A program made the position numbers and the translations under genes. The notes beneath the pieces are model-generated. The model did no database searches. It saw only the letters and a program-made list of their open reading frames with translations, and was not told where the DNA came from. Positions 8,987 to 56,950 of a stretch of DNA of 64,000 nucleotides are shown piece by piece (position 1 is the stretch's first letter; each line of letters starts with the position of its first letter). The stretch comes from a virus (Duplodnaviria; Caudoviricetes), in IMG/VR virus record IMGVR_UViG_3300021399_000106, positions 64,001 through 128,000 of that record. One strand, given 5' to 3'.

Positions 8987-8994
8987 GTTATAAT

Positions 8995-9705
8995 ATGGAA
9001 GAATTAAAAAGAGAAGAAAATAAGCATATTGGTTATACTCCATTAAGATTAAAATGACAGAATGGAGAGTTAACTAGGTTAAATTGAGATATTGTTATTA
9101 GAGATGAAGAATATTTTGGTTATCATTTAGGTCCTGATTTTGATAATTATGACGAAAGTGATAAGGAAAAATACCTATATAGATATGATACCTGATTTAT
9201 ATGTAAAAGAGATTGTCCTGAAGATAAAATAATTGATAATTTAATTTCATGTAGTAGAGACGAAATGCAAGTTAGATGAGGATTTAGCATTAAAGAGGAT
9301 TCTTATTTAAAATATAAATGGGATGAATATGACCTTAGAACTAATGTAAAATATAATATAACAAGAAATGATGAATTATTTTATGAAGGTTGCTGTGGCT
9401 CTTTAGAAGGTGCATATGTAAATGCAATGAAAATTATATATCAATTAGAGGATTCAGCAGCAGAGATTACTACTATAGACTGGAATAAAAATATAATAGG
9501 AACAAAAGTTTGGTATTGTGATCAACCAGCTACTATTCAAAGCGTTTATCGAAGTGAAATGTATCTAGTTCCGGATAAGGAATTTATAAAAGAATTTAAA
9601 GAACCTGAATCTTGAAAAGGTGAGGATTGAATGTATTGAGGCGACTATAAAGATGGTTTATATGTAGAAATATGAGATCCTCGAATTACTTGATTTAGAA
9701 AATAA
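8995..9705 (+). CDS. Hypothetical Trp-rich protein
   Basis: Continuous frame from ATG 8995 to TAA 9703 with 9 TGA and 3 TGG. Confidence 0.7.
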
Positions 9706-9745: not shown

Positions 9746-10522
9746 ATGATAAGAGTAAATGAAAATGGTGAAAATCAAATAGGACTTGTAAATATCTTTC
9801 CTTCTATTAATGGAGAAGGTCACGCATCTGGTAAACCAACGGTATTTATTAGAGTGTTTGGTTGTAATTTACGTTGCGTTTGGTGTGACACAAAAGAAAG
9901 TTGGACTGAAGATAATTTATTAAAGGTATATCCTGAAAGATTAAATAATGTTTTAAAATGGAAAACTGCTAAAGAAATATTTAATGAAGTAGAATCATTA
10001 GAACAAAATTGGTATCATAAATCTATTTGTTTAACAGGTGGTGAACCTTTACATTTAGCCAATACTGATTTTATGTTAAATGAATTATTACCATTATTTG
10101 TAAATGCAAATTATGATGTAAGTATTGAAACTGATGGTGGAATTGATTATAAACCTTATAAGGAAAAATTTGGTGATTCTAAGGTAATTAATGGTAATGG
10201 AGATAGAGTAGGTGTAACTATTATTGCTGATTATAAGTTACCTTCTTCAGGAATGACTAAAATGATGATTAAGGATAATTTTAAAATATATTCTGAAATG
10301 GATTTAATAAAAATGGTTATATCTGATAATGAAGAAGATTGGAAGGAATTAGAAAATGTTGTTAATTCCGGAACTAAAGCAAGTATTTATTTAAGTCCTT
10401 GTTTTGGACAAGTTACAATGAACAGAATTCCTGAATTTGTAATGAAACATTCTGATAAACCTATCAGAGCACAAATTCAAGTACATAAAATATTTTGGGA
10501 GCCAACAAAAAAGGACGTGTAA
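9746..10522 (+). CDS. queE: 7-carboxy-7-deazaguanine synthase (radical SAM)
   Basis: IFPSINGEG, VFIRVFGCNLRCVWCDT, LTGGEP, SIETDG, QIQVHK. Confidence 0.93.
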   Translation: MIRVNENGENQIGLVNIFPSINGEGHASGKPTVFIRVFGCNLRCVWCDTKESWTEDNLLKVYPERLNNVLKWKTAKEIFNEVESLEQNWYHKSICLTGGEPLHLANTDFMLNELLPLFVNANYDVSIETDGGIDYKPYKEKFGDSKVINGNGDRVGVTIIADYKLPSSGMTKMMIKDNFKIYSEMDLIKMVISDNEEDWKELENVVNSGTKASIYLSPCFGQVTMNRIPEFVMKHSDKPIRAQIQVHKIFWEPTKKDV

Positions 10523-20423: not shown

Positions 20424-22640
20424 ATGCAAAAAGTTATTAAAAGAGATGGAACATTGGTTGCTTATGATTCTAACAAAATTAGACAAGTTTTAAAGAATGC
20501 CAATGCCGATGTGGCAAAAAAAGATAGAGCATCCGAAGAGGATGTTAATTTTATCATTAATTATATTGAATCTCTTCCTAGAATTAGAATGAAGGTAGAT
20601 GAAATTCAAGATATAATTGAAAACCAATTAGTAACTTTAAATAAATACCAATTAGCAAAAAATTATATTACATATAGATTTCAGAGAGATTTAGTTAGAA
20701 AGAGTAATACTACAGACCAAACTATTAGGGAATTACTTGATGGTACTAATGAATATTGAAAAACAGAAAATTCAAATAAAAATGATAGAGTAGTTACAAC
20801 TCAAAGAGATTATATTGCAGGTATTACATCTACAGATATCTCTAAAAGATTTTTACTCCCTAAAGAAGTTGTAAAAGCTCATGATGAAGGTATTATTCAT
20901 TTCCATGATATGGATTATTTCGGACAAAATGCCTTACATAACTGTGATTTAATTAATCTAGATGATATGTTACAAAATGGAACAATGATTAATGGTGTAA
21001 TGATTGAAAAACCACATTGGTTAAGTAAGGCAGTTACAATTGCAACTCAAATAATTACCGCTGTTGCAAGTTCTCAATATGGTGGTTGTACAATTAGTTT
21101 AACTCATTTAGCACCTTTTGTTAGAGAGAGTTATAAGAAGTATTTAAATAAATATGCTAAACGTGGATTTAGTAAAGAGGATTGTGAAAAATACGCTAAA
21201 GAGGATTTACAACAAGAAATTGAATCTTCAGTTCAAACATTCAATTATCAAATTAATTCAATGTCAACAACTAATGGACAGGCACCATTTTTAAGTGTTT
21301 GTATGTATTTAGGCGAAACAGAAGAATATAAAGAAGAATTAGCACTATTAATTGAGGAATTCTTAAAACAAAGAATTTTAGGTATGAAAAATAATAAAGG
21401 TGTTTATGTAACTCCTGCATTTCCTAAATTACTATATGTTTTAGAGGAAGATAATATTCATGATAATTCTAAATATTTCTATTTAACACAATTAGCTGCT
21501 AAATGTACAGCTAAAAGATTAGTACCTGATTACATTTCAGAAAAAGTAATGAAGGAATTAAAACATAATATTGATGGTTCTTCAAGTTGTTATCCTTGTA
21601 TGGGTTGCCGTTCATTCTTAACACCTGATAGAACAATGAATATTGGTAATATAGCAAATGCAAAAAATTATGTTAAAGGTAAACCAAAATTTTATGGCAG
21701 ATTTAATCAAGGAGTTGTAACTATCAATTTACCTGATATAGCATTATCAAGTAAAGGTGATATGAAAAAGTTCTGGAAAATATTTGACCAAAGATTAGAT
21801 TTATGTCATACAGCTTTAAGATGTAGACATGAAAGATTATTAGATAGATATTCAGATATGGCTCCTATTTTATGGCAAGATGGTGCATTAGCTAGATTAG
21901 GTAAACATGAAAAGATTAATAAGTTATTATATAATGGTTATTCTACTATTTCATTAGGTTATGCAGGATTATATGAATGTGTTAAGTATATGACAGGACA
22001 TAGTCATACTGATGGTAATGGTGGTAAAGCATTTGGACTTGAAGTAATGCAACATATGAATGATGCATGTAATAAATGGAAGGCAAAAGAAAATATTGAT
22101 TATTCAGTATATGGTACACCTATTGAGTCAACAACATATAAATTAGCTAAATGTTTAAAGAAGAGATTTGGTGAAGATGTATTTGTTAAGATTGATGGTA
22201 GAGATAGAAACTATGTAACTAATTCTTATCACGTTCCAGTATTTGAAGAAATTGATGCTTTTGATAAATTAAAATTAGAATCTGAATTCCAAAGATTAAG
22301 TCCTGGTGGAGCAATTAGTTATATTGAAACACCTAATCTTCAAAATAATACAGAAGCAGTACTTGAAGTTATTAGATTTATATATGATAATATTATGTAT
22401 GCTGAATTAAATACTAAATCAGATTACTGTCAAAAATGTGGTTCAACTGGGGAAATTGAAATGATTGAAGATGGTAAAGGTAAATTAATTTGAAGATGTC
22501 CAGTTTGTGGAAATACAGATATGAATTTTATGAATATTGCTAGAAGAGTTTGTGGTTATATTTCTACAAATGCAATGAATCAAGGACGTATGAATGAGAT
22601 AAAGGAAAGAGTAATACATCTGGATAATAAAGAAATTTAA
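20424..22640 (+). CDS. nrdD: Anaerobic (class III) ribonucleotide reductase with ATP cone
   Basis: VIKRDG ATP cone, HFHDMDY, NCDL, MGCRS, TNSYH, CQKC..CPVC, RRVCGY; TGA at 20757 and 22491. Confidence 0.96.
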
Positions 22641-22945: not shown

Positions 22946-23473
22946 ATGAGATATGCAAAAATAAGAAAAACAGATATTTCAAATGGTCCAGGAATTAGAG
23001 TAAGTATATTTGTTCAAGGATGTTCATTTCATTGTAAAGGTTGTTTTAATGAAGATACTTGGGATTTTAATGGTGGAAAAGAATTTACAGATGAAATATT
23101 TGATAAATTAATAGAATTATGTAAAGGTACTCATATTCAAGGATTAAGTATTTTAGGTGGTGAACCTTTACATAAAAATAATGTAAATACAGTTTTAGAA
23201 ATTGTAAAAAGATTTAGAAAAGAATGTCCTGATAAAGATATTTGGTTATGGACAGGATTTGAAATAGATCCTTTAATTAATGATTTAATTTTAAAATATG
23301 ATGATGTTAGAAATTATTTAGAATTACTTAAAAATATTGATGTTGTAGTTGATGGTCAATTCGAAATTGATAAAGCAGATCCTAATTTAAAATATAAAGG
23401 TTCATCAAATCAAAGGGTAATTGATATTAAGAAAACATTACAAAATCAAGAAATAAGATTATATGAAAATTAA
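22946..23473 (+). CDS. nrdG: NrdD-activating radical SAM enzyme
   Basis: NGPGIRVSIFVQGCSFHCKGCFN, LGGEP, GSSNQR. Confidence 0.96.
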   Translation: MRYAKIRKTDISNGPGIRVSIFVQGCSFHCKGCFNEDTWDFNGGKEFTDEIFDKLIELCKGTHIQGLSILGGEPLHKNNVNTVLEIVKRFRKECPDKDIWLWTGFEIDPLINDLILKYDDVRNYLELLKNIDVVVDGQFEIDKADPNLKYKGSSNQRVIDIKKTLQNQEIRLYEN

Positions 23474-34347: not shown

Positions 34348-37300
34348 ATGGCAATTAATTTAAGTAATATTAGTCAATATTTTCAATATCCATCAAAGGT
34401 AGCAGAGTTAAAAGATAGATTATATAACATCTTAAAAAATAAAGGTATTGAAGTTACTGCTGCTGAAAGCTTAAATTCTTTAATAGAAAAGGTTAGAGAA
34501 GTTGAGCCAGCACTTGAACCTCAAACAATTTATCTAACTCAAAATAATACAAGCTATGATGTAACAGAATATACAGAGGCAATTGTTGATGTTCCTCCTG
34601 TAACAGTTGAAAATGATTTAGATGGTTTAATTGACGGAAGTTTAAAATCATTTACAATGCCTTCTACTATATCAAGTTTAGCAAATGAGAGATTTTTGAA
34701 TTTTAAAGACCTATCCACTGTAATAGCTCCTCGATTAAAAGAAATTCCAGATTCTACTTTTGAAAAATGTATTTCTCTAGAAGAATTAAATTTACCTGAG
34801 GTTAATTTAATTGGTAATTCAGCTTTTAAAGATTGTGTAAAGCTAAGTAGTATAAATGTAAATAATGCTTATTATATTGGTGAAAATGCTTTTGAAAATA
34901 ATATTAACTTGCAAAATATTGATTTAACTAATCTAAGAGAGTTACAATCCGGAACATTTAAAAATTGCTATAACTTATCAAGTATCTCTGCTCCTAATGT
35001 TAGATTAATTGACGGTTCAAGATTATTTGTAAATACTAATTTATCTGAATTAAATTTTCCAAACGTTTACAGTTTAAGATCCTTAACCTTATCAAGTAAT
35101 CGTAATTTAAAGTATATATCATTTCCAAATTTATTATATGTATGAGAATTGAATTTACCTTCTGGAATGAATAATACTGAATTAAATTTCAGTAAATTAT
35201 CCTATTTAACTCATACTTCTTTAGTTGACAGTACTACAATGAGACCTTTTATAAATTCTTGGTCAAATTTAACTTCAATAAATATGAGTTTATTATTAAC
35301 ATTATCTGCCATTTGACAGGCATGATTTGTTAAGAGTTGTCCTAATCTAACAGAAATAAAATTTCCTTTATTAACAAGAATATATTCAGATGGTTTAGCT
35401 TGTGACTTACCTAACTTAAAAACAATTGATTTAGGTTATTTATCATCAATGCCTACATTCTTTGCTAGTAGTTATTATTTTATACATAATTGTGAAAACC
35501 TAGAATCTATTAACTGTAAATATTTATCAAATATTGCTAGTTATTTTATGAGTAGTAATAAGATAAGTAGCTTAGATTTACCTAATACACAATATATTTA
35601 CACTTCAGCTTTTAATAATCTTTCATTATTAAGTAAGATAAATGCCTCAGTAGTTAGTTATATAGGAAATACTGCATTTCTAAATTGTTATAATTTAAGT
35701 GATTATAATTTTGAACATCTAACCTTTATTGGAAATAGTGCATTCAAAAATTGTAGTTCAATGTCAAAAGCTGTAAAAATGGAAACTAATGAGGTTCACA
35801 GTAATGCATTTAATGGATGTTATAATCTAAAAGAAATTTATTTTAATACTGTAAGTACAGGATATTATATAGACAAGGATGCATTCAGTAATTGTGGAAT
35901 ATTAACAGATCCAAATGGTAAAATTTATGTTCCATCATCTAAATACAGTAATTATATTAATACTTATAGTTCATATTTATTTGTAAGTAAAATTACTTCA
36001 ATGTCTGAACAATATGAAAGTGAAACAGCATTTGCTTATGAATTTACTAACTCAGGTCTTACATCTTTTCCTGAAAGTAAAATTAATGTTAAGGCAATAA
36101 ATCAATATGCATTCTCTGGATGTAAGCTAAAAGGAAGTATTACTTTATCTAATCTTGAATATATAGGAAATAAGGCATTTTACAATATGTGAAGTGCCAA
36201 TAACAGTTTAACTCTTAATCTTCCTTCATGTAAAACAATTTCTACTTATGCTTTTTACAATAATACAGCATCAGTTTCATATATTTTACCTGAGGTGGAA
36301 TATATTGGACATTACGCTTTCCAACACAATCCTAACTCAGCTTGTTTTGTATCAATTTCAATGCCAAATGTAAAATATATAGGAGATTATGCCTTTCAAT
36401 CTATTAGATATCTCACCATATCTTCTCCAGAATTAAGTAATCTAGAGTATATTGGAAGTTATGCTTTTGCTTCTATATATTATAAATTCAGTGTTGAAGG
36501 AGGAACTTTAAGTTTACCTAAACTTGAAGTAGTAAACGATTATGCATTCTATGAGATTGGATATCGATATGGGGCAAGTTGACGTTTTAACTTATATGCA
36601 CCTAAACTTAAAAATATACAATACGGAGCATTCCAAAATTGTTACACATTAAGTAGTGTTACTCTATCAGATATAGAAATAATAGGAGGTTATGCTTTTA
36701 ACAGCTGTGCAGCCTTAAGAACAATTGATTCATTATATAATTGTAAAGTAATTAGTAATAATGCATTCTATAATGATTATAACCTATCTTTCTCTATATC
36801 ATCTCCAAATTTACTTAGTGTTGGTCAAAGTGCCTTCTTTGGTACAAAATTAAATTATTTTAGTGCACCAGAATTATTATTCTTGGCCGCAGATGCATTT
36901 AATGGATGTGCCAGTTTATCTACCGTTTATGCTCCAAAAATAAATAAGTTATATACCAATGTATTTCAAGGATGTACTAGTTTATCAAGTTTAACTTTAG
37001 ATTTTTCAGCCATATCGGAAATACAACAAGGTGCGTTATCAGGATGTTGATTACTTTCAGAATTAAATTTACCAAATGTTACTTCTATATCTAACTATGC
37101 ATTTAAAAATTGCTATTCTTTAAGTAATCTAATAATTAATAGTAATTATTCATATATTAAACAAGGAACATTTGCAGGATGTAGTAATTTAGATTTTACA
37201 AATATCAATCTTGAAAATATGACATCAATCGAAAGTGAAGCATTTAGTGGTTGTTCTAAGTTATACTCTATAAAGAATAATTATATTTATAGAGTTGAAT

Positions 37301-40300
37301 CTTCAGTATTCCTTAACTGTACAGGTATTTCAGAAATTAATTTACCAAATGTTGTAGAATTAGATAATAATGCTTTTTATGACTGTACAAATTTAAGTAA
37401 TTTAAATATCAAATATTCAAATATTTATAAAATTCCTCAAGGTGCTTTCTTAAATTGTTATAACTTAAGTAGTTTATATTTTGAAAGGTTAGAATCTATT
37501 GAATCAAGTTGTTTCCAAAATTGTAGTGGCTTAACAGAATTTAATTTAGTTAATGTAACAATAGTTCCAAATAATGCCTTTGACGGATGTCAAAAATTAA
37601 GTAGTATTAATCTGGGAAATGTTACATCTATTGGTGAATCAGCATTCCATAATTGTTATTCTTTAAATAATATTAATTTAAATAATATTGAATATATTGG
37701 AAGTTATGCTTTTGATAGATGTTCTACTCTAAGTATCAGTATTCCTAACTTAAGTGTAGTTAGATCTGCAACTTATCGAGGAACTGATATAAAAGAAATC
37801 ATAAATGATTCAGTGAATGCAATTCATGAAACCGCATTTTATAGTTGTAGTAATTTAAGTGAAATTTCACTTCCTAATCTTTATTCTATATCAATGTCAG
37901 CTTTCCAATATTGTAATAACTTAACTAGTATATATATTCCTAATATTAGAAGTATAGGTGCTGCTGCATTTGCAAGTACAGGAATATATAGTATACCTGA
38001 AGGAATAGATAATAATTTATCCCAAATTCCTCAAAGTTGTTTCCAGAGTTGTAATAATTTATATGAATTAAAATTAAATTCAATTTTATCTATAGGTTCT
38101 GCAGCATTCTACAGTTGTAATTCTTTAAGTGAAATTGAATTAATAAATATTAAAGATACATCTGCATTAGGTAGTAGTGCCTTCTTATATTGTAATAATC
38201 TAGAAAGAATATCGTTACCAAATATTACTAACTTAAGATCTTACTACTGATATGGCGGAAATTATTCATTCTCTGAAAATACAGCTTATTATATATTTGG
38301 TGGTGCTAATAATAACATAAAGGAAATATATGCTCCAAAATGTAGCCAGTTTGCTCACTATATATTCTATGGTAACTTACCTAAAATTGAAAGTATATAC
38401 TTACCAGAATGTACATATATAAATGGATCTCCATTCTCTGGTAAGGCATATTTAAAAAATGTTGATTTAGGAAAAATGTCTTATTTATGAGATTATGCTT
38501 TCTATAACTGTTCTGTATTAAATACTATAAATATAAGTAATATCTTTTCTGTAGGAAACTATACCTTCCAAAGTTGTGGATCTCTAATTTCTATGAACTT
38601 ACCTAGGGTTTCAAGTATTGGTATTAATGCGTTCTTCAATTGTATAAATTTAAGTGAAATTAAGGCTACATATTTAAATTCATTAGGTCAATCGGCTTTA
38701 GCTGGATGTAGTAATCTGAAAAATATTGATGCTCTTACCATCGACAATATTGCTTATTTAGCTTTACTAAATTGCTCTAATTTAGAATCTATAAAAGCAT
38801 GTTATATAGACCAATCAGCCATTTGGAATTGTACACATTTAAGTAATATTTATTTATTAACTGCTAGTAGTAATGCTATTAACATAGCAAATCAACTTAG
38901 TACTACACCAATAGGCAACTCAACCTATTTAGGATACTACGGAAGTATATATGTTCCAAGTTCAAGAGTATCAGTTTATCAAGCTAATTATGCATCTTAC
39001 TCTGAGAGATTTACATCCTTACCATCAGAGATGGAAAATAACTACATACACGCATATCAATATGCCTTAAAAACTATATCTTTATCAGAAATTAAAACTG
39101 AAGCATCTTATATATTACGTTATGCATTTAATAATGCATCATTTGCAGATTTTTCAGAATTAAATCTAAGTAACGTGAAATATATAGGTAGTTATGCATT
39201 CAGAAGTTGTTATAGTTTAACATCAATAAACTTACCAGAATGTGAACGTATAGAATATAGAGCATTTGAAAATTGTACCAATTTAGAGTATATATCATTA
39301 CCAAAAGTTTACAGTATTGGTGATGCGGCATTCTACAATTGTAATAAATTAAAAGTTTTATCATTACCTGAAATAACATATGGCGGCTCAATATTTACTA
39401 ACTTATATTCATTAGAAGAACTATATGTAAGTAAGATAAGAGAGATATCTGTTATTAATTTATCAAAATTAACTATTTTAGATGCTGCTGAAGCTTATTG
39501 GTGATGAGGACCTCAAAGTGCATCAATTAGATATTTAAATTTACCTAAACTATCTTATTTAAAAATAGGAAATTATAATCAAAGTAATGCTAATTTATGA
39601 GGAACTCAATTATCTACTACCATTGAATATTTAAATATTGGTGCCTCATATATAAGTCAACATTCATCAATTTTGGCAAGTAGAAGTTATGGATCAGTTA
39701 TAATGTCAAATATATTAGATATTCCTTCGTATATGTTTAATAGTGCAACTATAAGTTATGCGGAATTTAATAAGGTTACTTCGTTAGGAGTAGCTGCATT
39801 TAGAGGTGCTTCAATAGGTCAACTTAGTTTACCTGAGTTACTTAATGTTAGTGCTAATGGATTTGAGGGTGCTACCATTTTAGGTACATTAGATCTTCCT
39901 AAGGCTAGATATTTAGGAGCTTATGCATTATCTAATTTAAAATGTTCTGATATAAGTATGCCTCAGGTTTCAATGGTATCAAATTATGCATTATATAGAG
40001 TATCTGCATCTACATTAAAATTTAATGCCGTTATGTCTATGGGAACACATACTAATTATCAATTTGCAGGAGCATCAGTTAAATACTTTGTATTCAATAA
40101 CAATATACAAACCTTCTATCAAGGTTATAATTTTGCAGATAATTCAGTTTTAGAAAAGGTTGTATTTAAAGGAAGTATATTAACTTGAGGAAATTGATAT
40201 GGTTCAAATACAGTATTCCCTAATACACCAATAGCAAATTCAACTTATCTAGGTTATTATGGAAGTGTATATGTTCCTCGTAGTTATTTAGATTCTTATA

Positions 40301-40389
40301 GAACAGGGGTTTTCAGTTATTATAGTAATCGTGTAACTGCAATTGAAGATCATGAAAGTGAGTTAAGAGAACTTGGATTAATTGATTAA
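34348..40389 (+). CDS. Giant BspA-type (LRR_5) leucine-rich-repeat protein, ~2013 aa
   Basis: All six track fragments are in one frame, separated only by TGA (13 by my count); dozens of LPxxxxIGxxAFxxCxxL repeats. Confidence 0.9.
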
Positions 40390-41436: not shown

Positions 41437-41560
41437 TAAAGCCTTATAATAAGGCTTTTTATTTTGTATTTCCTATCAAATTCCTTGTATTTTAAGGTTT
41501 TTATTAATTCATAATAAAAGTATAAACACAAAAATAAAAGAGGTTTAAAACCTCTTTTTT
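41437..41560. terminator. Pair of hairpin terminators where the two transcriptional arms converge
   Basis: AAAGCCTTA..TAAGGCTTTTT and AAAAGAGGTTT.AAACCTCTTTTT between convergent genes. Confidence 0.8.
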
Positions 41561-44988: not shown

Positions 44989-45345
44989 TTATAATTTTTG
45001 TAATACTTGAATATCATCTAAAGATACTCAACCATTTCAAAAGTTATATGTATCCTTTTTATTTAAAACATCGTATCCAATAGCTGTAACTTGAATCATC
45101 TTGGAAACAATATTATTTATTTCACATTTAAGATATCTATCTTTTGGCATAAATCCTTTATTTCAATTTTCTTTTAATGTGTTATTATAGAAAAATGAAT
45201 CATTTAAATATATTAAATATGCCTTGTTAATTTCGATTTTAATGGTTTTTTTCTGAGGTATTATATAAGTGTTGGTTTTCGGATCAAAATTGCTTAAATC
45301 AGCAATTTCAACCTTTTCCAACTGTTTTTTAATTAAGTCATTCAC
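44989..45345 (-). CDS. Hypothetical protein
   Basis: Open through three TGA to TAA. Confidence 0.65.
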
Positions 45346-46004
45346 TATTTAACAATTCCTTCTTCTAAGTAAGTTGCAGCGAAATCTGCAAGGTGTAATA
45401 AAACTGCTAATGGATATTTATTACAGATTTGACTCTGGTCAATATTAGTATTTCCATTACCTGTATTCATGTGATGATTCATAATAGCAACTGTTTCATC
45501 ATGATTTAAAGGAATGAATCTACTAAGTAATAGTACAGAATTTTCCTCATGAGTTCCAGCTAGGAATCTATCCTCAGGTTCTCTTACAGTCCAACCTTCA
45601 ACTGAAACCCATTCATACTTACCTAAGTTATCATGTTTAGAACCTTGTTCATTATATATTTTCTTGTTCATTATTGTTTTTTCATAAAAATTAATCTTTG
45701 AAATATCATGAAATAATCCACAAACAAGTAAGCTATTTTCATCAATAGGTCCTGTTATATGTTTATATTGTTCATATAAATTAACTAATGAATAATAAAC
45801 ATTTAAACTGTGTTGGCAAAGACCTCCATCATAATTTGAATGATATTTAGTAGATGCAGGAGCAAAGAAGAAATCAGAATTTTGTAAATATCCAATTAAT
45901 GCTTCCTTATCTACTCCTTCAATTGTTATCTTGTTAACTAAGTTTATAAATGTAAGTCTATTTTCTTCAATTTCATTTGCAGTTAGTTTTTTTGCGTTTA
46001 ACAT
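45345..46004 (-). CDS. HD-domain phosphohydrolase
   Basis: APASTKYH..GGLCQHS, FHDISK, HH, LHLAD. Confidence 0.88.
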   Translation of the reverse strand: MLNAKKLTANEIEENRLTFINLVNKITIEGVDKEALIGYLQNSDFFFAPASTKYHSNYDGGLCQHSLNVYYSLVNLYEQYKHITGPIDENSLLVCGLFHDISKINFYEKTIMNKKIYNEQGSKHDNLGKYEWVSVEGWTVREPEDRFLAGTHEENSVLLLSRFIPLNHDETVAIMNHHMNTGNGNTNIDQSQICNKYPLAVLLHLADFAATYLEEGIVK

Positions 46005-47596: not shown

Positions 47597-48913
47597 TTAT
47601 ACCTTATTAATTATTTCAGATTTAACTTTTTCAATAAGAATTTCCTTATTATTTTCTATCTTGCCTTCAATAATATCATTTAGATATCCTTCTAAAATAT
47701 TTTTGATTATAGGTCCAGGTTCTAATCCTAATTCAATTAAATCATTACCATTAATTGCTAATTGTTTTAATGAATAACAACCATTACGAACTATATCTTC
47801 TAAATCATTACGTAGTTTAGTAGCTTTATATTCACTGATATTACCAATAACCCGAGACATTATTATAGAGGAAACCATAACATAATAACAATAATCTTTA
47901 CTGTCATTATGTTTTAATTCATGTAATGCTTTTGTAATTATATATCTATCAACATCTTCATGGCTTAATTGTAAATATTGATATTTACCACCAATAATTT
48001 CACTATTTTCAGTAACTGTTCTACAAATATCATTTATATAATCTTTATCTTCATTAGATAATATTAAATAGTTAAATAATAAATGTCTTGATTCAATTCT
48101 ATTAAATAGTAAACAATATGATAATATATAATCTCTATTAAATAGAGGATCACTATTAAATATTCTGGATATTAAATTCATACTGTAAAGATGCGTATCA
48201 TTTAAAGGTAATACTTGTTTAAGAATATTATAAGCTAATACATTATTTAATATTCTAGCAAATCCTTTTCCACAAACTAATTTATTTAATTCTGTAGTTT
48301 TACGTTCCTTTGCAATGGTAAATAAATTATTTTTTAATTCCTCTGCGGCTAATAGAGTATTATTTTCAACTTCAAAATCTAATACTGAAGCAAATCTAAG
48401 CATTCTTAAAATTCTTAAAGCGTCTTCATCAAATCTATAATATGGATTTCCAACAGTTTTAATAATTTTATTTTCTAAATCAGTTATACCGCCAAAATAA
48501 TCTATAATATATTTACCATCATATACTAAGGCATTAATAGTAAAATCTCTTCTAGATAAATCTTCTTGAAGATTAGTTGTAAATGTAACTTCATCTGGAT
48601 GTCTATGGTCAGTATATTCTCCATCTAAACGATATGTTGTAATTTCATAATTTTCCTTCTTATATCTAACAGTTACGGTTCCGTGCTTTTCACCATTATT
48701 ATTAATTAATGTATAATCTTTATTTTTAAATACCTCTTTAATTTGTTCCGGAGTGGCATTTGTAGTAATGTCATAGTCCTTAGGAGTTTTATTTAATAAT
48801 AAATCTCTTACACATCCACCTACAATATATGCTTCATATTTAGTATGTAATTTGTTTAATAAGTTTTTAACTGCCTCTGGAATATTAAAATCATATTTAT
48901 ATTTTCCTACCAT
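47597..48913 (-). CDS. cca: CCA-adding tRNA nucleotidyltransferase (class II)
   Basis: VGGCVRD, DYDITT, EITTYR, RRDFTINA, EDALRILR, ER. Confidence 0.93.
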   Translation of the reverse strand: MVGKYKYDFNIPEAVKNLLNKLHTKYEAYIVGGCVRDLLLNKTPKDYDITTNATPEQIKEVFKNKDYTLINNNGEKHGTVTVRYKKENYEITTYRLDGEYTDHRHPDEVTFTTNLQEDLSRRDFTINALVYDGKYIIDYFGGITDLENKIIKTVGNPYYRFDEDALRILRMLRFASVLDFEVENNTLLAAEELKNNLFTIAKERKTTELNKLVCGKGFARILNNVLAYNILKQVLPLNDTHLYSMNLISRIFNSDPLFNRDYILSYCLLFNRIESRHLLFNYLILSNEDKDYINDICRTVTENSEIIGGKYQYLQLSHEDVDRYIITKALHELKHNDSKDYCYYVMVSSIIMSRVIGNISEYKATKLRNDLEDIVRNGCYSLKQLAINGNDLIELGLEPGPIIKNILEGYLNDIIEGKIENNKEILIEKVKSEIINKV

Positions 48914-49553: not shown

Positions 49554-50447
49554 TTAATTGCCATTTATTTTTCTAATATCATCAAACATAGGTTTAATAT
49601 CATCTAATAATGGTTTTCTTTCTTCCTCAGGTGTTGTTGAAGATGTAGAATAAGTATTTTCTACTAAATCAATAAACATAGTCATCTGACCATCTTCACC
49701 TGCATAGTACATATTCCACTCCTCATCAGTTAATAATCTTTTAGGTTCTAATTGTTTTAAAGCTAGGTTATCAAAAGATACAACATCAAAATGATTTACT
49801 AATTCAGGTAATTCATTATATAATGCTTGTTTAGTTGTATCGACTAAGGTATTATGATAATTTTCACCACGTCTAAAATCCTTATAACCTAAAATTAATA
49901 ATTTTAAATTATTATCATATAATTTCTTTAAGGTTTCCACTGAATGAACTCCATTAATAACGTGAATTACAGCTGTTGGAAATTGCTTTATTAGCTCAAT
50001 AAAATGTTCTTGATCTGGATTTGTTAAGGAAACACCTAACCCATGAATTAAATTATTTTCAATTAACTTAGCAAGTAAATCATAATTTTCCATAAAATGC
50101 TTTTGATTTACTGTCATATTACAAATTAAATTTAATCCTTTACACTTTTCTAAGAAAGGAATTAAATCAGGATGTTCTAATGGATTACCTCCACCAATAG
50201 CTAATTCTGTATAAGGTAATAGAGTTTCAATGAACTTAGCATTCATTATATCCCCGTGTTTACCATCAGGTAATGAATTTTCATGGCAGTACTGGCACAT
50301 CATATTACATTTATTTGTAATCTTAACATCCATAGAATCAGGATATTCAGGTATTAATTTATCCTCTTTATTATATTTAATTAACGTACCATCTGAGCAT
50401 AATATCTTAAAATAATTCCCATTCTTTACTTTTCCAATAAATTTCAT
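49554..50447 (-). CDS. Radical SAM enzyme of unknown function
   Basis: KITNKCNMMCQYCHE (CxxxCxxC), AIGGGNP; no C-terminal SPASM cysteines. Confidence 0.9.
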   Translation of the reverse strand: MKFIGKVKNGNYFKILCSDGTLIKYNKEDKLIPEYPDSMDVKITNKCNMMCQYCHENSLPDGKHGDIMNAKFIETLLPYTELAIGGGNPLEHPDLIPFLEKCKGLNLICNMTVNQKHFMENYDLLAKLIENNLIHGLGVSLTNPDQEHFIELIKQFPTAVIHVINGVHSVETLKKLYDNNLKLLILGYKDFRRGENYHNTLVDTTKQALYNELPELVNHFDVVSFDNLALKQLEPKRLLTDEEWNMYYAGEDGQMTMFIDLVENTYSTSSTTPEEERKPLLDDIKPMFDDIRKINGN

Positions 50448-50452
50448 TTTTT

Positions 50453-50845
50453 TTAATCCTCCTTAAATCTAATAACTTCATTATCAACTAGATATTTAAT
50501 ATAATCATCACATTTTCTAATTCCGTTTTGAATATAAGGTGTGCAATCTTCAAATGCTTTTTCTCTTAAATAATATTCAACATAAGGAATAGCAGGCTGA
50601 CAAAATGCATCATCTAAAATATTTGTTTCGAGTTTAGTAAATGTTTTACTATCAATTGATATATTAAGAGTTTCACTAAATCTTTCTCCACCTTGATAAG
50701 TAGCTTCACTTATGGTTCTACAAAAATACCATGTTTTTGGATTATAATTTGTAAATCCTAATTCCTTTAATTTTTCTGCTGTTAATCCTTTACAAACTTC
50801 TACTTTATCATCATGAAAATCATATTTACTGTAGTGTTTTTCCAT
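50453..50845 (-). CDS. Hypothetical protein
   Basis: ORF within an operon. Confidence 0.6.
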   Translation of the reverse strand: MEKHYSKYDFHDDKVEVCKGLTAEKLKELGFTNYNPKTWYFCRTISEATYQGGERFSETLNISIDSKTFTKLETNILDDAFCQPAIPYVEYYLREKAFEDCTPYIQNGIRKCDDYIKYLVDNEVIRFKED

Positions 50846-50846
50846 A

Positions 50847-51482
50847 TTATAGCATCTCCTTTAAAACTTTTTTCCTAACCTCTATTGTCTTTTCACCATT
50901 TAAGATTTTGCATAACCATTCAGGTCTAATTGAGATTAAGATATATTTATTTAACTCATTATCATAAGCATACATCATATTTTGTGGTGCTTTGGTAATA
51001 GGTTTATATTTTTCTTTTTCTTCAAAAGCCCAACCAAACATATTATCGTAGGACTTATCATAAGCCATATACTCACTTAATTCTCTTGGCTCATCAAATA
51101 TATGTAAGTTCTTAATGTGGATTGCATAACCATTTTTACCTTTTAAGTAATCATATATTTCTTTATTGGTTAAACAACTTTTTCTTAATAATTCAATATT
51201 ACTAATATTTAATCCCAAATAAAATGGCTCATATTCTTTTGAATTATCATAAAATGCTTGTCCTGTTCCATCTATTGCATAAGATAAATTATAATCTATT
51301 TTCGAACACGCTATTTCCTCAACCTCATAATCACATTCAGCTACGATTTTGCCATTTAACAAGTAATCTTGTTTTTCGTGAAACTTATGAGTAGAAGTTA
51401 TATATTTACTTTCATAAAATTCATAGATATTTTGATTAAATAAATAAGGCTTTGATTTTGTACAATATAATAGTAATTTCAT
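50847..51482 (-). CDS. ASCH-domain protein, apparently circularly permuted
   Basis: The ASCH signature ILISIRPEW..KILNGEKTIEVRK is at the C-terminus; LYCTK, GKIVAE, GYAIHI, P..L, APQN come before it. Confidence 0.75.
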   Translation of the reverse strand: MKLLLYCTKSKPYLFNQNIYEFYESKYITSTHKFHEKQDYLLNGKIVAECDYEVEEIACSKIDYNLSYAIDGTGQAFYDNSKEYEPFYLGLNISNIELLRKSCLTNKEIYDYLKGKNGYAIHIKNLHIFDEPRELSEYMAYDKSYDNMFGWAFEEKEKYKPITKAPQNMMYAYDNELNKYILISIRPEWLCKILNGEKTIEVRKKVLKEML

Positions 51483-52069
51483 TATTTTAATTCCTCCAAA
51501 CTTTTATTAAAGTTTTTATTTAATTCACTAATATCCTCATTTAATTTGTCGTTATAATATTTTTTCTTGTCCTCTAATACCTTATCTTTTAATTTTTGCC
51601 AATAATCTAAAATAGTATTCTTAATAGCTGTAATATTTGAATTTATATCAAAGTAGAATAAATTTTTGTTTTCATTATTATAATCTGTATCAATTGTAGA
51701 ATCCCAATGAAAAGGACCATAACCTCTATCTGATTCATGATTCTCCATTAATAAATCATTTACATCGCCGTTAAAAGAATAACAATTTGTGTTAACACAG
51801 TAACAAACAACAAAATTATAAATATCTGTATTTATTAACCAACCTAAATAATTATGAGGTAATTCAATACCTTTTTGTGCCACTATAACTTTATCAATTT
51901 TAGTATCATCTACACTAACTCTTATTCTATAATATATTTTTCCTACCTCTAAATCTTCAATTGAGATACTATTAGGAAAGTTTTTATTATTTAACTCCTT
52001 ACTTTCTTCCTTTATTTCTGTTTCCTGTACAGTATTTTTCATTATTTCTTTTTTATGTTTTCTAAACAT
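51482..52069 (-). CDS. Hypothetical protein
   Basis: GAGGTG RBS before ATG 52069 (MFRKH). Confidence 0.6.
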   Translation of the reverse strand: MFRKHKKEIMKNTVQETEIKEESKELNNKNFPNSISIEDLEVGKIYYRIRVSVDDTKIDKVIVAQKGIELPHNYLGWLINTDIYNFVVCYCVNTNCYSFNGDVNDLLMENHESDRGYGPFHWDSTIDTDYNNENKNLFYFDINSNITAIKNTILDYWQKLKDKVLEDKKKYYNDKLNEDISELNKNFNKSLEELK

Positions 52070-52159
52070 GGTGATCACCTCTTCAATATAAATATACAAT
52101 AAAAAGAGGTTATATTAACCTCAATTTTAATCTTTTTTAATATTTTTTAATAAATTTTA

Positions 52160-52519
52160 TTAACCATCATATCCAAATCGACAAATAGTTTTAATTACTT
52201 CACCATTAGGAGTAGTAAATGTATTTTGATCTGTTTCTAGATCTTCGCAAAAACTCTCATAGGTACATAAGCCATAATCACCATATAGTTCCTCAGGATT
52301 GTCCGTATATTCAGGATTTTCCTCTACAATATATTTATTTACTTCATCTAGGTTATAAAATTTACCTTCTTCAAACTTATTATTCTTCCAACTTCAACTA
52401 TATTCACAATAAATGGTTTCTCCGTTTACTCATTTATCAAAATCATCCTTCATTGCAATAACCATTGAGTGTGTTGAGCTTGAGTTAGTTTCAAATGTAT
52501 TTTTTCTAATATTAATCAT
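52160..52519 (-). CDS. FETNSSS-motif protein 4 (absent from the ORF track)
   Basis: MINIRKNTFETNSSSTHSMVI...FGYDG; two TGA. Confidence 0.85.
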
Positions 52520-52522
52520 TAT

Positions 52523-52792
52523 TTAAATTCCTTCCTTATCTTTTTCTAATTTATATAATTTTAAATCCACAATACTATTAGTATTTATAGGAATAATTAT
52601 TACATTTTCTATACCTTTATCGCTTAACATATTTTTAAGAGCTGTGCAATCCTGACAAATCCTTTCCTTAGATGTATTCACAAATTCTACCTTAATTAAA
52701 TATGTATTATTAGAATCTAATTCTGTAAAGCTAATATCTTTTGCATATTTAGCAGTAATTTCTTCTAATTCTTTTTCCGTATATGTAGCCAT
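52523..52792 (-). CDS. Hypothetical protein
   Basis: AAGGAG RBS. Confidence 0.6.
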   Translation of the reverse strand: MATYTEKELEEITAKYAKDISFTELDSNNTYLIKVEFVNTSKERICQDCTALKNMLSDKGIENVIIIPINTNSIVDLKLYKLEKDKEGI

Positions 52793-52804
52793 AATAATAT
52801 CTCC

Positions 52805-53179
52805 TTATCCAAAATAGTAATCTAACGATGCTTCTTTCTTTTCCGCATTATATTCATAACTATCTAATTCATCTATTGAATAAAATGTAATTGGAAAGAA
52901 ACCTAATCTATGATGTCTTGTAACTTCCTTATATCTTTTTAATTCTTCCTTACTCATTTCTTGCCAATTTTCAGGAAATTCAACATTATCAATTCTATTC
53001 TTAATATAATCTTTGATATCTAGCCAAGTACAAAATTCAGGATAGCCATTAGATTCATGCAATACATTATAAAATAATTTTCCATTTGCAAAATCTATCC
53101 AAGTTTTAGCATCGCAAACAACTAAAGAATGTGAACTTGAACTATTAGTTTCAAATGTTGATTTTCTAACTTTAATCAT
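52805..53179 (-). CDS. FETNSSS-motif protein 3
   Basis: MIKVRKSTFETNSSSSHSLVV...DYYFG. Confidence 0.85.
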   Translation of the reverse strand: MIKVRKSTFETNSSSSHSLVVCDAKTWIDFANGKLFYNVLHESNGYPEFCTWLDIKDYIKNRIDNVEFPENWQEMSKEELKRYKEVTRHHRLGFFPITFYSIDELDSYEYNAEKKEASLDYYFG

Positions 53180-53525
53180 AAAATACTACTTCCTTATCTA
53201 CATCAATTATTTTATATAAAGCTTTTAATTCAGGATTTATTTCATCACATAATACATAATTAAAACGATTTCTTTCATCTTCACCTTTAAATTCAATAAG
53301 ATACTTATTACTTTCAGTTGAAAAATCTGATAGCTTTGTTGTTTTAAATACTGAAGTTTTACAGATTAATGACTTACGTGAATCGCTATATAAAAATTGA
53401 TATATAGCCTTTATATCATCAATATTAATGGATTCTATATGAAAGTTTAAACAAGGATTAGGTCCACCATAGTCATTAGTATATTTTAAAGCATTTATAA
53501 ACACATTTTCATCATTCTTATTCAT
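53172..53525 (-). CDS. Hypothetical protein
   Basis: Translationally coupled ORF. Confidence 0.6.
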   Translation of the reverse strand: MNKNDENVFINALKYTNDYGGPNPCLNFHIESINIDDIKAIYQFLYSDSRKSLICKTSVFKTTKLSDFSTESNKYLIEFKGEDERNRFNYVLCDEINPELKALYKIIDVDKEVVFYD

Positions 53526-54163
53526 TATTCCTCAAAATCCTTTTCTGTAATATTATATTTTGAACATGTACAAGTACTGTCAATATATTCTTTTACTCCA
53601 GTATTTAATCCTGGCTTTAAGGTTGGGTTAAATGCGTCATAATAATTTGAATTGTCATTATCAATTACTATCATGCATCCTTTATTAAAAATTATATTAA
53701 TTAAATCTTCATCATCTAATAAATCTTGACTTTGATGGTCAATACTTCCAAATGGGTCACCATATTCATCAATATTTAACTCAAACTTAACCTCTTTAAC
53801 ATCTGGACATTTTTCTTTGATTTTTTCCAATAAATCTTCTAACTCTTCATTTACAACACCATCAGCAATCATTTGTTCAGCTTCACTATGAGTGGTATCA
53901 TTCTCTTCTCCTCAATTCAAATGAATACATAATCTAGTTGCAACATAATCTAACTTATCATTAGATGAAATCAGTAGGTCATCAGTACCAAAACCAGTTA
54001 AAGATTCAGGACCTGACCAACCATAATCTCTAAAATGGATAGTTAAAACTCCATTATCGGTTGCTAGTTCATACTCAATTCTATTTGGATTTTTCTGTGA
54101 ATAAACTAATGAGTGAGATGAACTAGAATTTGTTTCAAATACATTTTTTCTTATTTTTATCAT
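53525..54163 (-). CDS. FETNSSS-motif protein 2
   Basis: MIKIRKNVFETNSSSSHSLVY; joined across TGA 53912; YGW, KLDY, IDHQS, IDNDN. Confidence 0.85.
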
Positions 54164-54172
54164 AAAATCTCC

Positions 54173-54958
54173 TTAATGGTTATCATTATCAATAATTAAA
54201 ATTATGTTTCTATCAAATAAAAATCTTTCATAACCAATTTTTCTAATTTTTGGCATTTGATCATTTTCCTCACCTTCAAATGATTCGTGATCTATATAAC
54301 CAAATCCTTGAAATTTATCTTCACCGGCTTCTGTACTTACTTCGTTACCGTGTCTACCTTTAAATGTTATAGACCAAGTATGCCAATATGGATGTGAAAT
54401 ATCTTCTAATAAATTAGTTTCAGGTTTTAATTCTTCAAAGCAACTTGTTTCTGAATCATTTTTTACATCACAATCGTCTAATTCAGACCACCACTTATAT
54501 TTAAAACCTTTAAAGTTAGGATCATATTCTTTTAATATTGCCATAACTTTCTTAACTTCTTCATATTCTTCTAATAATTTACAAGCTTTATTCCATCTCT
54601 CATTTGCTTTTTCATCATCATAATTATTAAATTTATAATATTTAGACCAATCCTTATCCTCTTTAACTACCCATTCTTCATCAACTTTATCAGATAAATA
54701 TTCATTTGCAAAGTAAGTCATTAAATAATTTAATTTTTCTTCAAAACTTTTAATTACTTCTTTTCTTTGCCAACCATAACCTTCGAAATTAATAGTTAGA
54801 TAACCTTTATTTTCATCATTCCAACCATACCAAAATTCTGATTCGCCTTTTTTATAATAACATTTATTTCGCCAATTTTTAGCGTTTGGATGTTTATATA
54901 CTAAACTATGACTAGAACTTGAATTGGTTTCAAAAACATTATTCCTGATTTTTATCAT
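54173..54958 (-). CDS. FETNSSS-motif protein 1
   Basis: MIKIRNNVFETNSSSSHSLVY; YGW, KLNY, IDHES, IDNDNH; all 11 Trp are TGG. Confidence 0.85.
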   Translation of the reverse strand: MIKIRNNVFETNSSSSHSLVYKHPNAKNWRNKCYYKKGESEFWYGWNDENKGYLTINFEGYGWQRKEVIKSFEEKLNYLMTYFANEYLSDKVDEEWVVKEDKDWSKYYKFNNYDDEKANERWNKACKLLEEYEEVKKVMAILKEYDPNFKGFKYKWWSELDDCDVKNDSETSCFEELKPETNLLEDISHPYWHTWSITFKGRHGNEVSTEAGEDKFQGFGYIDHESFEGEENDQMPKIRKIGYERFLFDRNIILIIDNDNH

Positions 54959-55801: not shown

Positions 55802-55882
55802 ATAATCACCTCATATAATATTTTATATAATAATATACAATAAAAAAGAGGTTATTACAACCTCTTTTAATATTTTTTAATA

Positions 55883-56950
55883 TTATTTAAATAGAACTGA
55901 TTTATAAATTGGTAATAAAATTTTATTATAAATTTCTTCTCTATTACACTCTCTTGGTAGTGAAGTATTTTTAAATAAAAGTTCTGATTCTTTTTCTAGA
56001 TTATGTAATAAAGTATAGAAATCTTCATTAAATGCACCTTTTTCAGTTCTATATTTACCATTTCTGATATCCATTAATAAATCATGTTCATCTTTACGGT
56101 AAGTATGTAAATCTTCATCCTCTAAAATTTCATTACACATAAAATATAATCTAATTAAATGCATTGCGTGTTTATTTAAATGTAAGTCATCCTTCTTTTT
56201 ATTTCTTTGACCTTCAGTGTTCTTATAATCAGCAACTACATTACTAGTTTCTGACATAATTACTCTAAAATATGCTAATGGGAAATGTTCTAAATTAATA
56301 TCACAATATAAACCATAAGTTTCATTTCCTACTTCACTAATATTAGCATAAGGAGTATTTTCATCTACATAAATTTTAAATTGGTCTTCATTGAAATTTA
56401 ACTTCTCAACACAATTTTGTAAACAGTTATTAACACTTCTATTAATATGTTCAGCCATTTCTTTTTCAGATAAAGCCTCGCCATCTCTACATAATGCATT
56501 CTCTAATCTATTTAATTGAGCATGAGCATAACCACCAAAAGTATAATAAGCACGTTTAGATAAGAATAAATGTCTATTATCTAATAAAATTTTTCCTAGT
56601 GGACTTACATAAATATAATGTTCTGGTTTACAGAATAACATTTCAATAATATTTGGATTACAACCTGTAACTAGGTTAATAAATTTATTTAAACTATAAA
56701 TTACAGTATCAGTTGCTTTATCCTCTCTTTGCTCAAAATGTGTAATACCTAAAATATCTTTTTCTGTATTTAAGGCAACACCTCTAATATCAACATCGCT
56801 TGTTTCAATATTAGTTCCATATGAGTGTGAACCACCTAAAGTTAAGAATAAAATCTTATCTTTACCTAAATGTGGATCAGTCCATAAAAATTCATATTCT
56901 TTACTATTAAATACTTTATCTTTGATTTCTTCTAATGTCATATTATTCAC
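55883..56950 (-). CDS. Pol-beta-superfamily nucleotidyltransferase (YcgL-like)
   Basis: GGSHSYG..SDVDIRG, NPNIIEML, KHAMHLIRL. Confidence 0.85.
   Translation of the reverse strand: MNNMTLEEIKDKVFNSKEYEFLWTDPHLGKDKILFLTLGGSHSYGTNIETSDVDIRGVALNTEKDILGITHFEQREDKATDTVIYSLNKFINLVTGCNPNIIEMLFCKPEHYIYVSPLGKILLDNRHLFLSKRAYYTFGGYAHAQLNRLENALCRDGEALSEKEMAEHINRSVNNCLQNCVEKLNFNEDQFKIYVDENTPYANISEVGNETYGLYCDINLEHFPLAYFRVIMSETSNVVADYKNTEGQRNKKKDDLHLNKHAMHLIRLYFMCNEILEDEDLHTYRKDEHDLLMDIRNGKYRTEKGAFNEDFYTLLHNLEKESELLFKNTSLPRECNREEIYNKILLPIYKSVLFK

Follow-up and report, generated by a model that had tools for sequence, protein, structure and literature searches.

Only a few radical S-adenosylmethionine (SAM) enzymes mature proteins, among them sulfatase maturases, glycyl-radical activases and some quinoprotein maturases, and each of these revealed new chemistry. 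Most peptide-oxidising and cross-linking radical SAM maturases use auxiliary Fe-S clusters; precedents with a single cluster are viperin, DesII and the activase types. To our knowledge, viperins have nucleotides as substrates and are not accompanied by tagged proteins. In systems for peptides that are ribosomally synthesised and then post-translationally modified (RiPPs), a candidate substrate with a conserved recognition and modification sequence is encoded beside the enzyme gene, and the locus described here resembles these systems in this respect. It lies in a stretch of 64,000 nucleotides, hereafter the window (positions 64,001 to 128,000 of the IMG/VR virus record IMGVR_UViG_3300021399_000106; Duplodnaviria, Caudoviricetes), which is part of a phage genome of 166.5 kb with 27% GC. 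Four co-oriented genes of the window, A to D, begin with the same N-terminal peptide tag, and a stand-alone radical SAM enzyme is encoded on the same strand. The tagged proteins and the enzyme are almost certainly functionally linked. They probably form an undescribed protein-modification system, and the reading that we favour on balance is a phage-encoded enzyme-client system in which the radical SAM enzyme is a dedicated maturase and A to D are its clients, marked by the invariant tag. The system comprises the following features.

54173-54958, minus strand: client A, long type (L), 261 residues; tag, YGW, KLNY, YIDHES and C-terminal IDNDNH
53525-54163, minus strand: client B, long type (L), 212 residues; tag, YGW, KLDY, SIDHQS and IDNDN; one TGA read as Trp (W84)
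52805-53179, minus strand: client C, short type (S-like), 124 residues; tag, W..F.NG..FY and C-terminal YYFG
52160-52519, minus strand: client D, short type (S), 119 residues; tag, W.NG..Y and C-terminal RFGYDG; TGA read as Trp at W30 and W42
54905-54958 (A), 54110-54163 (B), 53126-53179 (C) and 52466-52519 (D), minus strand: tag-coding segments (codons 1-18) used for the codon table
49554-50447, minus strand: stand-alone radical SAM enzyme, 297 residues, starting 1.7 kb past the end of D
50286-50309, minus strand: codons of the cluster-binding CxxxCxxC motif (C47, C51, C54)

The four proteins begin with M-x3-R-x3-FETNSSSxHS and then diverge; their N-terminal starts are MIKIRNNVFETNSSSSHS in A, MIKIRKNVFETNSSSSHS in B, MIKVRKSTFETNSSSSHS in C and MINIRKNTFETNSSSTHS in D. 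Each gene opens with an ATG that is preceded by a Shine-Dalgarno-like GGAG or AGGA (GGAG in the case of A, whose ATG lies at 54958). Exactly four tags are present in the whole genome, and the chance expectation of the pattern is about 6e-10 per codon position. The codons of the three invariant Ser residues switch between TCN and AGY among the paralogues, which takes two base changes each. Because these codons alternate, selection acts on the peptide, and the conservation of the tag is at the peptide level and not that of a DNA repeat. A and B have the motifs GW, K..Y, IDH(E/Q)S and IDNDN in common, C ends with YYFG and D with FGYDG. An earlier note on this DNA, made from the letters and their open reading frames (ORFs), had described four co-oriented motif genes, synonymous codon variation within the motif and a division into long and short subtypes; all three descriptions agree with the present analysis. 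None of the four proteins matches a significant family in Pfam, NCBIfam, PHROGs or PADLOC, and searches of deposited phages with the client region, as DNA and as protein, gave no match. A protein atlas search with protein A returned only nameless viral clusters (score 0.86).

The tag is strictly conserved among relatives. The search pattern of the locus survey fixed Phe, Thr and two Ser, and left Arg, Glu, Asn, the third Ser and His free. Across the 309 unique proteins that carry the tag, R(-4), F, E, T, N, S, S and H(+8) do not vary, and 308 have the third Ser, so that among the free positions Arg, Glu, Asn and His never varied and the third Ser varied once. The Phe residue is located at position 9 or 10 in 381 of 388 tagged ORFs, and hydrophobic residues flank the tag positions at -5, -1, +10 and +12. 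A list drawn up independently by profile search contains the strict motif in 247 of 254 proteins. The tag is modular, being common to unrelated protein bodies. In the AlphaFold2 (AF2) model of client B, which has a mean predicted local distance difference test (pLDDT) score of 83, residues 1-11 are disordered and are the least confident part (pLDDT 37); the tag is therefore predicted to be a flexible or disordered N-terminal peptide arm.

The distribution of the tag and the enzyme was surveyed from both sides. A profile of the long family yielded 80 diverse IMG/VR viral loci, 25-40% identical to B. In 73 of them a homologue of the window's radical SAM enzyme is encoded within 10 kb, without exception on the strand of the tags and in most cases within 1 kb of one; these enzymes show 31-58% identity and represent 32 lineages below 60% identity. 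The seven exceptions comprise two loci with the enzyme elsewhere on the contig, one whose enzyme gene is divided between both ends of a circularly permuted contig, two fragments that are 8-15% complete and two loci that end at a contig edge. Searches that started from the enzyme found tags in 78 of 79 new viral loci (155 tags, all on the enzyme's strand) and in 67 of 80 loci of bacterial genomes and metagenome-assembled genomes (114 tags, all on the same strand, against about 0.001 expected by chance in that megabase). Enzyme loci without a tag are mostly short or truncated. The five full-length ones that were followed up consist of four bacterial genomes with tag proteins elsewhere and one viral contig that is a 7% complete fragment. 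Because co-occurrence is near-obligate from both search directions, the two families are not independently distributed; an independent distribution is what the earlier note had named as refuting its proposed link.

This partnership is selective. Among 158 loci, homologues of the enzyme were present in 157, of B in 110, of D in 111, of C in 89 and of A in 52, and those of every other window neighbour in 0-10. The small ORFs located between the clients and the three genes that precede the enzyme gene (53172-53525, 52523-52792, 51482-52099, 50847-51482 and 50453-50845) were considered as parts of the system and rejected, with homologues in 0-2 of the 158 loci. The commonest architectures are L-S-R and L-R, where R denotes the enzyme gene, and the gene order varies between R-L, L-R, L-S-R and arrangements in which the partners are tens of kb apart. 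One enzyme is accompanied by one to six or more clients. Enzyme lineages with identities as low as 27-35% still occur with tagged genes on the same strand, usually at less than 1 kb. In a distant locus, a client (about 32% identity) and the enzyme (35%, 8e-58) are 5 nt apart, and in one lineage a single ORF of 453 residues encodes the enzyme, followed directly by RRVVRHSLFETNSSS and an L-like body. This single-ORF form is rare and was observed in two close clusters only. When the system is defined as an N-terminal R-x3-F-E-T-N-S-S-S-x-H with Phe at residue 9-10, together with a radical SAM enzyme of the family aligned here (alignment A3) in the same genome, the window contains four tags and one enzyme, and 73 of 80, 78 of 79 and 67 of 80 loci of the three surveys agree with this definition.

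The product of 49554-50447 is a member of the radical SAM superfamily. It scores 35.4 bits against PF04055 (gathering cut-off 29.5) and matches phrog_16999 at 4.5e-48. The cluster motif reads CNMMCQYC(HE), and C47-x3-C51-x2-C54 is invariant in 27 family members. Only these three Cys residues are invariant in the A3 alignment, with no conserved Cys past residue 54, and the enzyme therefore has no auxiliary cluster. Further conserved features of the alignment are an NGN...DGT beta module at the N-terminus, CxxxCxxCHE, a SAM motif of GGGNP type and an SFDNL..Q segment. The AF2 model of the enzyme (pLDDT 94.8) has a radical SAM core fold (partial or full TIM barrel) that 123 solved chains of radical SAM type match at Z of at least 8, and its residues 1-30 form three strands. 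The nearest structures are SkfB (Z 18.7, root-mean-square deviation 3.6 Å, 265 aligned residues) and SuiB (Z 17.9, 278 aligned), which alone also align the N-terminal 30 residues, to their peptide-recognition region. Viperins, EpeE, BlsE, ChlB, PqqE and anSME follow at Z 14-16 and the PFL activase at about 10.5; the top Foldseek matches of the model are peptide-modifying enzymes too. As judged within the whole-enzyme model only, the three strands of residues 1-30 are not accompanied by the helices of a full RiPP recognition element. Hidden Markov model (HMM) scores against all named radical SAM families are far below their cut-offs. No QueE HMM matched the enzyme, and NrdG-family matches were far below the cut-off (NrdG2, 27.2 against 131 bits). 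The window has separate QueE-like (9746-10522) and NrdG (22946-23473) genes, in line with the earlier description of an orphan enzyme 1.7 kb downstream of the array that is neither of the two.

Compared with the described systems, the locus exhibits partial likenesses and clear discrepancies. SkfB (PDB 6EFN) and SuiB (5V1Q, 5V1S, 5V1T) match the structure best, along nearly the full length of the enzyme and with its N-terminal module included. However, identity to them is 12-13%, the phage enzyme lacks the SPASM/twitch Cys residues, and its N-terminal module consists of three strands only; the C-terminal auxiliary-cluster Cys residues that characterise the SPASM/twitch subfamily (SuiB, SkfB, anSME, PqqE, CteB) are absent from it. 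In contrast to RiPP precursors, which are short peptides, the phage clients are folded acidic proteins of 120-260 residues. The presumed modified part is invariant here whereas RiPP cores vary, and no protease or exporter is encoded near the phage system. The HxsC score is 18.4 bits against a cut-off of 267.9, and the tag contains a single SxHS without the repeats of an Hxs substrate. In the manner of anSME/AtsB (Z 14.2-14.6), the phage enzyme would mature folded clients by acting on a Ser residue of a short invariant motif close to their N-terminus, which would thereby become catalytic, and one enzyme would serve several paralogous clients. The client motif, however, is FETNSSSxHS and not (C/S)xPxR, the clients have no Pfam sulfatase match and no sulfatase or alkaline-phosphatase fold among their structural matches, and the two auxiliary clusters of anSME are missing. 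The missing auxiliary cluster speaks against a simple mechanism of anSME or SPASM type.

The glycyl-radical activases PFL-AE and NrdG are likewise small radical SAM enzymes with a single cluster whose target is a flexible segment within a folded client, and GrcA/YfiD offers a parallel for a short client beside a long one. Unlike the glycyl-radical systems (Z about 10.5), the tag is N-terminal and not C-terminal, and contains neither an invariant Gly nor RVxG; moreover, a genuine NrdD/NrdG pair is encoded at another place in the phage genome. Viperin and pVip share with the enzyme a single cluster, a similar size and the lack of an auxiliary cluster (Z about 15.6). HMM matches to pVip are weak (PADLOC pVip 1.7e-7; NCBIfam viperin 23.3 bits against a cut-off of 180), and a radical dehydration of viperin type is one conceivable route from Ser to dehydroalanine. 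Enzyme and long client correspond to the existing families phrog_16999 ("Fe-S oxidoreductase") and phrog_28997, which have gp128/gp130 of Microcystis phage Ma-LMM01 and p108/p106 of Rhodothermus phage RM378 among their members and carry generic annotation only.

With the tag removed, the client bodies sort into a long family with 199 unique proteins, a short one with 84, and about 16 small families. No profile-profile similarity exists between L and S bodies (hhalign probability 0.4%), and the about 16 further body families have only the tag in common; none of these, families from bacterial genomes included, contains a Pfam domain. The idea that S is a truncated L was rejected on the same hhalign value, the sole weak likeness being that of the C-terminal ..FGxYG of S to the ..FGEFGWG hairpin of L. 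Nearly all clients are acidic, with a median isoelectric point of about 4.5-4.6. The long-family profile collects 6394 cluster representatives at 50% identity, and phrog_28997 (unknown function), matched by 17 of 37 relatives of B, is the only family match of the long type. Searches of PDB sequences with a single L sequence and with the L profile gave nothing below E 0.6, and the L model found nothing in PDB at E of 0.001 or lower with Foldseek. VIA-align of the L model against 48,161 chains reached a best Z of 2.8, a failure that does not prove a new fold, and against BFVD the model matched only uncharacterised phage relatives. Readings of the motif as that of a PIN-domain, HAD or alkaline-phosphatase-like protein were rejected for lack of structural or HMM support. 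The long type is a near-universal partner with invariant motifs of its own; the phrase "diversified set of effectors" of the earlier note thus suits the clients only in part, the long type being more than a variable effector.

The short family is distinguished by a strongly conserved C-terminal AFGxYG(Y/H)D(G), the C-terminus of D being encoded at 52160-52180, and FGx[FYW]G is located about six residues from the C-terminus in 66 of 84 members. Other client families also end with an aromatic residue and Gly (WFDG, YYFG, YRDG), which hints at a second functional element. A Cys-rich client class with conserved C(C/x)RFF(N/D)E..L..C.C occurs in bacterial genomes. Clients of this type that are located away from the enzyme gene were found in these survey loci.

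L247:1501-2211: Cys-rich-type client, bacterial genome
L248:724-1581, minus strand: Cys-rich-type client, bacterial genome
L249:1012-1593, minus strand: Cys-rich-type client, bacterial genome
L250:1501-2079 and 2184-2765: two Cys-rich-type clients, bacterial genome

Because the tag is modular and predicted to be disordered, and because the nearest structures are peptide maturases, the data fit an enzyme that recognises or modifies the Ser/His motif. The earlier note had read the locus as a post-translational modification system; its central part, that tagged proteins and enzyme are one system, stands on the co-occurrence, the common strand and the single ORF, and the specific chemistry it offered, installation of a cofactor or activation of a radical, stays conjecture. 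Binding, modification, chemistry and biological role are what we infer from these patterns. Several observations weigh against a maturase with clients. The invariance of Phe, Thr and two of the Ser residues is in part built in by the search pattern. Rare variants of the tag (FNSN, FETA, LETS, FESN) occur in the profile-based list; all four are full-length and retain Arg and SSSxH, and the other three non-matching entries of the 254 have different starts and may be N-terminally truncated. In the 453-residue ORF, in-frame GTG codons lie just before the tag, so that a separate client product is possible. Within the window, the enzyme gene is set apart from the clients by a terminator-like hairpin and by three genes unrelated to the system. 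The lack of auxiliary Fe-S clusters makes several of the candidate chemistries less obvious. Finally, the long type, nearly always present and equipped with invariant polar motifs of its own, could be a catalytic partner and not a substrate.

In one alternative, the tag is a docking peptide that is not covalently changed. Through it the clients, above all L, would bind the enzyme as obligate subunits or adaptors, and the resulting holoenzyme would have a different target, for instance a nucleotide, nucleic acid or host protein. Such a holoenzyme would explain the coupling data and the single ORF equally well, and would suit the almost constant presence of an L body with its own invariant motifs. 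The system is found among genes of nucleic-acid metabolism and RNA repair, in the window as in relatives, and the enzyme has no auxiliary clusters and matches viperin-type nucleotide enzymes at Z of about 15.6. However, nine invariant or near-invariant residues are kept across unrelated bodies, down to 27% enzyme identity. This is far stricter than in known docking or leader peptides and resembles a chemical requirement. One to six or more clients per enzyme would also be odd for a fixed holoenzyme, and the best structural matches are peptide-modifying enzymes. We regard docking without modification as unlikely, although it merits more weight than the explanations that follow.

The tag could instead be an intrinsic catalytic, metal-binding or self-processing motif; the earlier note had offered an autoprocessing or metal-binding site as its second option. 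The enzyme would then be only a neighbour in the pathway, producing or using the same small molecule. Glu, Asn, Ser, His and Arg are typical of active sites and metal ligands, DH(Q/E)S and DNDN of the L type resemble metal ligands, and the fixed spacing from Met1 could be structural. A catalytic motif needs a common scaffold, however, and the tag occurs on bodies without detectable homology. Residues 1-11 are unpacked in the L model, no solved fold and no Pfam or NCBIfam hydrolase family matches, and near-obligate adjacency to, and ORF fusion with, one radical SAM family would be left unexplained; we hold this explanation to be quite improbable. Least credible, to the point of being nearly negligible, is hitch-hiking of neighbour genes without a functional link. 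Many of the surveyed loci do come from related gut phages, in which neighbours are inherited together, but no other neighbour gene is conserved, and despite changes in gene order the pair persists in 32 enzyme lineages that are less than 60% identical, and in phages from Bacillota-rich gut communities and of Prevotella, Microcystis and Rhodothermus; the ORF fusion exists in addition.

Under the favoured reading, in which the enzyme matures its tagged clients, a mechanism can be proposed. The flexible N-terminal tag would be captured by the enzyme. Its hydrophobic and Arg-containing half (h-R-x-x-h-F) would probably pair with the N-terminal beta module of the enzyme, as leader peptides do in RiPP maturases, which would place the ETNSSSxH half over the [4Fe-4S]/SAM site. 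The 5'-deoxyadenosyl radical would then take a hydrogen atom from one of the three invariant Ser residues. Candidate covalent products are a formylglycine-like aldehyde, dehydroalanine formed by viperin-like dehydration, a Ser-His cross-link and an epimerised residue; the options of aldehyde, dehydration, cross-link and epimerisation are drawn from general radical SAM chemistry. The long type may be the ancestral, near-universal client, probably activated by the modification, and its motifs GW, K..Y, DH(Q/E)S and (D/N)DN could belong to a metal-binding or catalytic protein that is switched on in this way. The short type and the about 16 other body families may have gained the same tag secondarily. 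A fuller scenario is conceivable but somewhat doubtful. In this scenario, the enzyme, free of auxiliary clusters, would turn a Ser of SSSxH into a reactive group or cross-link, a post-translational modification not known before, and the protein-derived catalytic residue or cofactor would activate the L clients, as a new enzyme family, and several unrelated acidic proteins. Phages of at least four phyla, Lak megaphages and a bloom-controlling cyanophage included, would deploy these proteins mid-infection for host takeover or counter-defence.

The pair is present in deposited phages and, in total, in phages of at least four bacterial host phyla. Three of these phages are given here by survey locus.

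L251:4070-5876: Microcystis phage Ma-LMM01, gp130 (L type) and gp128 (enzyme)
L252:5046-6861: Rhodothermus phage RM378, p106 and p108; enzyme identity 27%, tag IRFGLSTNSSSSHS
L253:6001-9000: Prevotella megaphage Lak-B7, enzyme followed by four tagged ORFs

Ma-LMM01 and RM378, both cultured, encode exactly one L and one enzyme each. In RM378, the enzyme is shorter and lacks the N-terminal beta module, and the first half of the tag is degenerate (LS in place of FE). From this joint degeneration, the beta module of the enzyme and the first half of the tag may contact each other. RNA-seq of Microcystis infected with Ma-LMM01 assigns gp130, gp129 and gp128 to the middle class B5; all three are silent at 0-1 h and reach log2 values of about 9.4-10 at 3-6 h, and a middle promoter is predicted only upstream of gp130 (PMC5780444, Table S3). 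These data fit a single gp130-gp128 transcription unit that is expressed together with the replication genes. For the window's own phage, the sequencing runs with matching DNA are metagenomes of animal guts, the best of them probably the source sample, and no run with matching RNA is listed. In the deposited genomes, the enzyme is annotated as "Fe-S oxidoreductase" and the clients as "hypothetical". A literature search found no published description of the motif or of a link between both families.

The enzyme would belong among the radical SAM maturases of proteins or peptides that have clients of their own, and its chemistry may prove new. The system is widespread: the client family counts more than 6000 cluster representatives at 50% identity, and hundreds of viral contigs carry it, as do Lak megaphages, phages of Microcystis and one phage of a thermophile. 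It is also compact, consisting of a single enzyme and a tag of 18 residues. Should the tag be modified, this would amount to a new protein modification whose recognition tag is portable, which could be useful for protein engineering. The system would also open a way into a large block of phage "dark matter", with up to six tagged genes per surveyed locus, as host-interaction genes often multiply. Ma-LMM01, which is cultured, uses the standard genetic code and expresses a minimal one-client version, makes the system directly testable.

The phage of the window reads TGA as Trp, because no long ORF of the window ends in TGA and because a TGA of D aligns with a conserved Trp. This codon (codon 30) corresponds to a Trp that is 90% conserved among 84 standard-code relatives. 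A 2013-residue ORF at 34348-40389 contains 13 in-frame TGA codons, and many genes of the structural arm have several. Translation with table 11 breaks B into pieces of 83 and 115 residues and loses D, exactly as the earlier note had anticipated in stating that one copy is invisible and another split unless TGA is read as Trp. A crude metric for guessing the genetic code of other loci gave no discrimination and was dropped. As a separate observation, the plus-strand ORF at 8911-9705 (about 250-264 codons) contains 13 TGA and 3 TGG codons and would encode an unusually Trp-rich protein if its frame is correct; it is without an NCBIfam match, and a wrong frame or something else is also possible.

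The array is located on the minus-strand arm of the window, together with genes of replication, recombination and RNA-repair type, whose products are clamp-loader subunits, an HD protein, a CCA-adding enzyme, an RlaP nucleotidyltransferase, RecA/UvsX and a peptide deformylase. The neighbours and further features of the window are as follows.

47597-48913 and 55883-56950, minus strand: CCA-adding tRNA nucleotidyltransferase and RlaP-family nucleotidyltransferase, which flank the system
45345-46004, minus-strand arm: HD-domain protein, near the system
50847-51482, minus strand: 211-residue protein between the clients and the enzyme gene, phrog_3136 match
52106-52122, minus strand: terminator-like hairpin (GAGGTT-N5-AACCTC, then a T run) that separates the client array from the gene block of the enzyme
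9746-10522, plus strand: QueE-like 7-carboxy-7-deazaguanine synthase (2.1e-45)
20424-22640, plus strand: anaerobic ribonucleotide reductase NrdD
22946-23473, plus strand: NrdG, activase of NrdD (191 bits against a cut-off of 126)

The hairpin at 52106-52122 occupies the sole intergenic gap of any size, which is about 60 nt long and separates D from the next block of genes. Hairpins with GAGGTT/AACCTC arms are also located at 55848-55864 and 41540-41554, against 0.01 expected by chance, and one of the three marks the meeting point of the converging plus and minus gene arms. The three are likely bidirectional terminators that bracket the client array. Of the terminator and promoter previously proposed at about 52100, the former is borne out by the terminator-like hairpin and the latter is unsupported, with 47 promoter-like matches in the region against 60 in shuffled sequences. 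The protein encoded at 50847-51482, which is not conserved together with the system, matches the start of the candidate defence-system protein PDC-M11B with its last 30 residues (1.9e-10) and the start of an ASCH domain.

The CCA-adding enzyme, the RlaP protein and the HD protein suggest an RNA-repair or tRNA-maintenance block. Among relatives, the system is encoded next to NADAR and YAcAr in one survey locus (L001:12791-13611), and next to NAMPT, PRPP synthetase and a nucleoside deoxyribosyltransferase-like gene in another (L004:107-3068). Such NAD- and ADP-ribose-related surroundings are typical counter-defence or auxiliary metabolic neighbourhoods. On the plus strand of the window, the QueE-like gene hints at 7-deazaguanine DNA modification, and the NrdD/NrdG pair is compatible with an anaerobic gut host.

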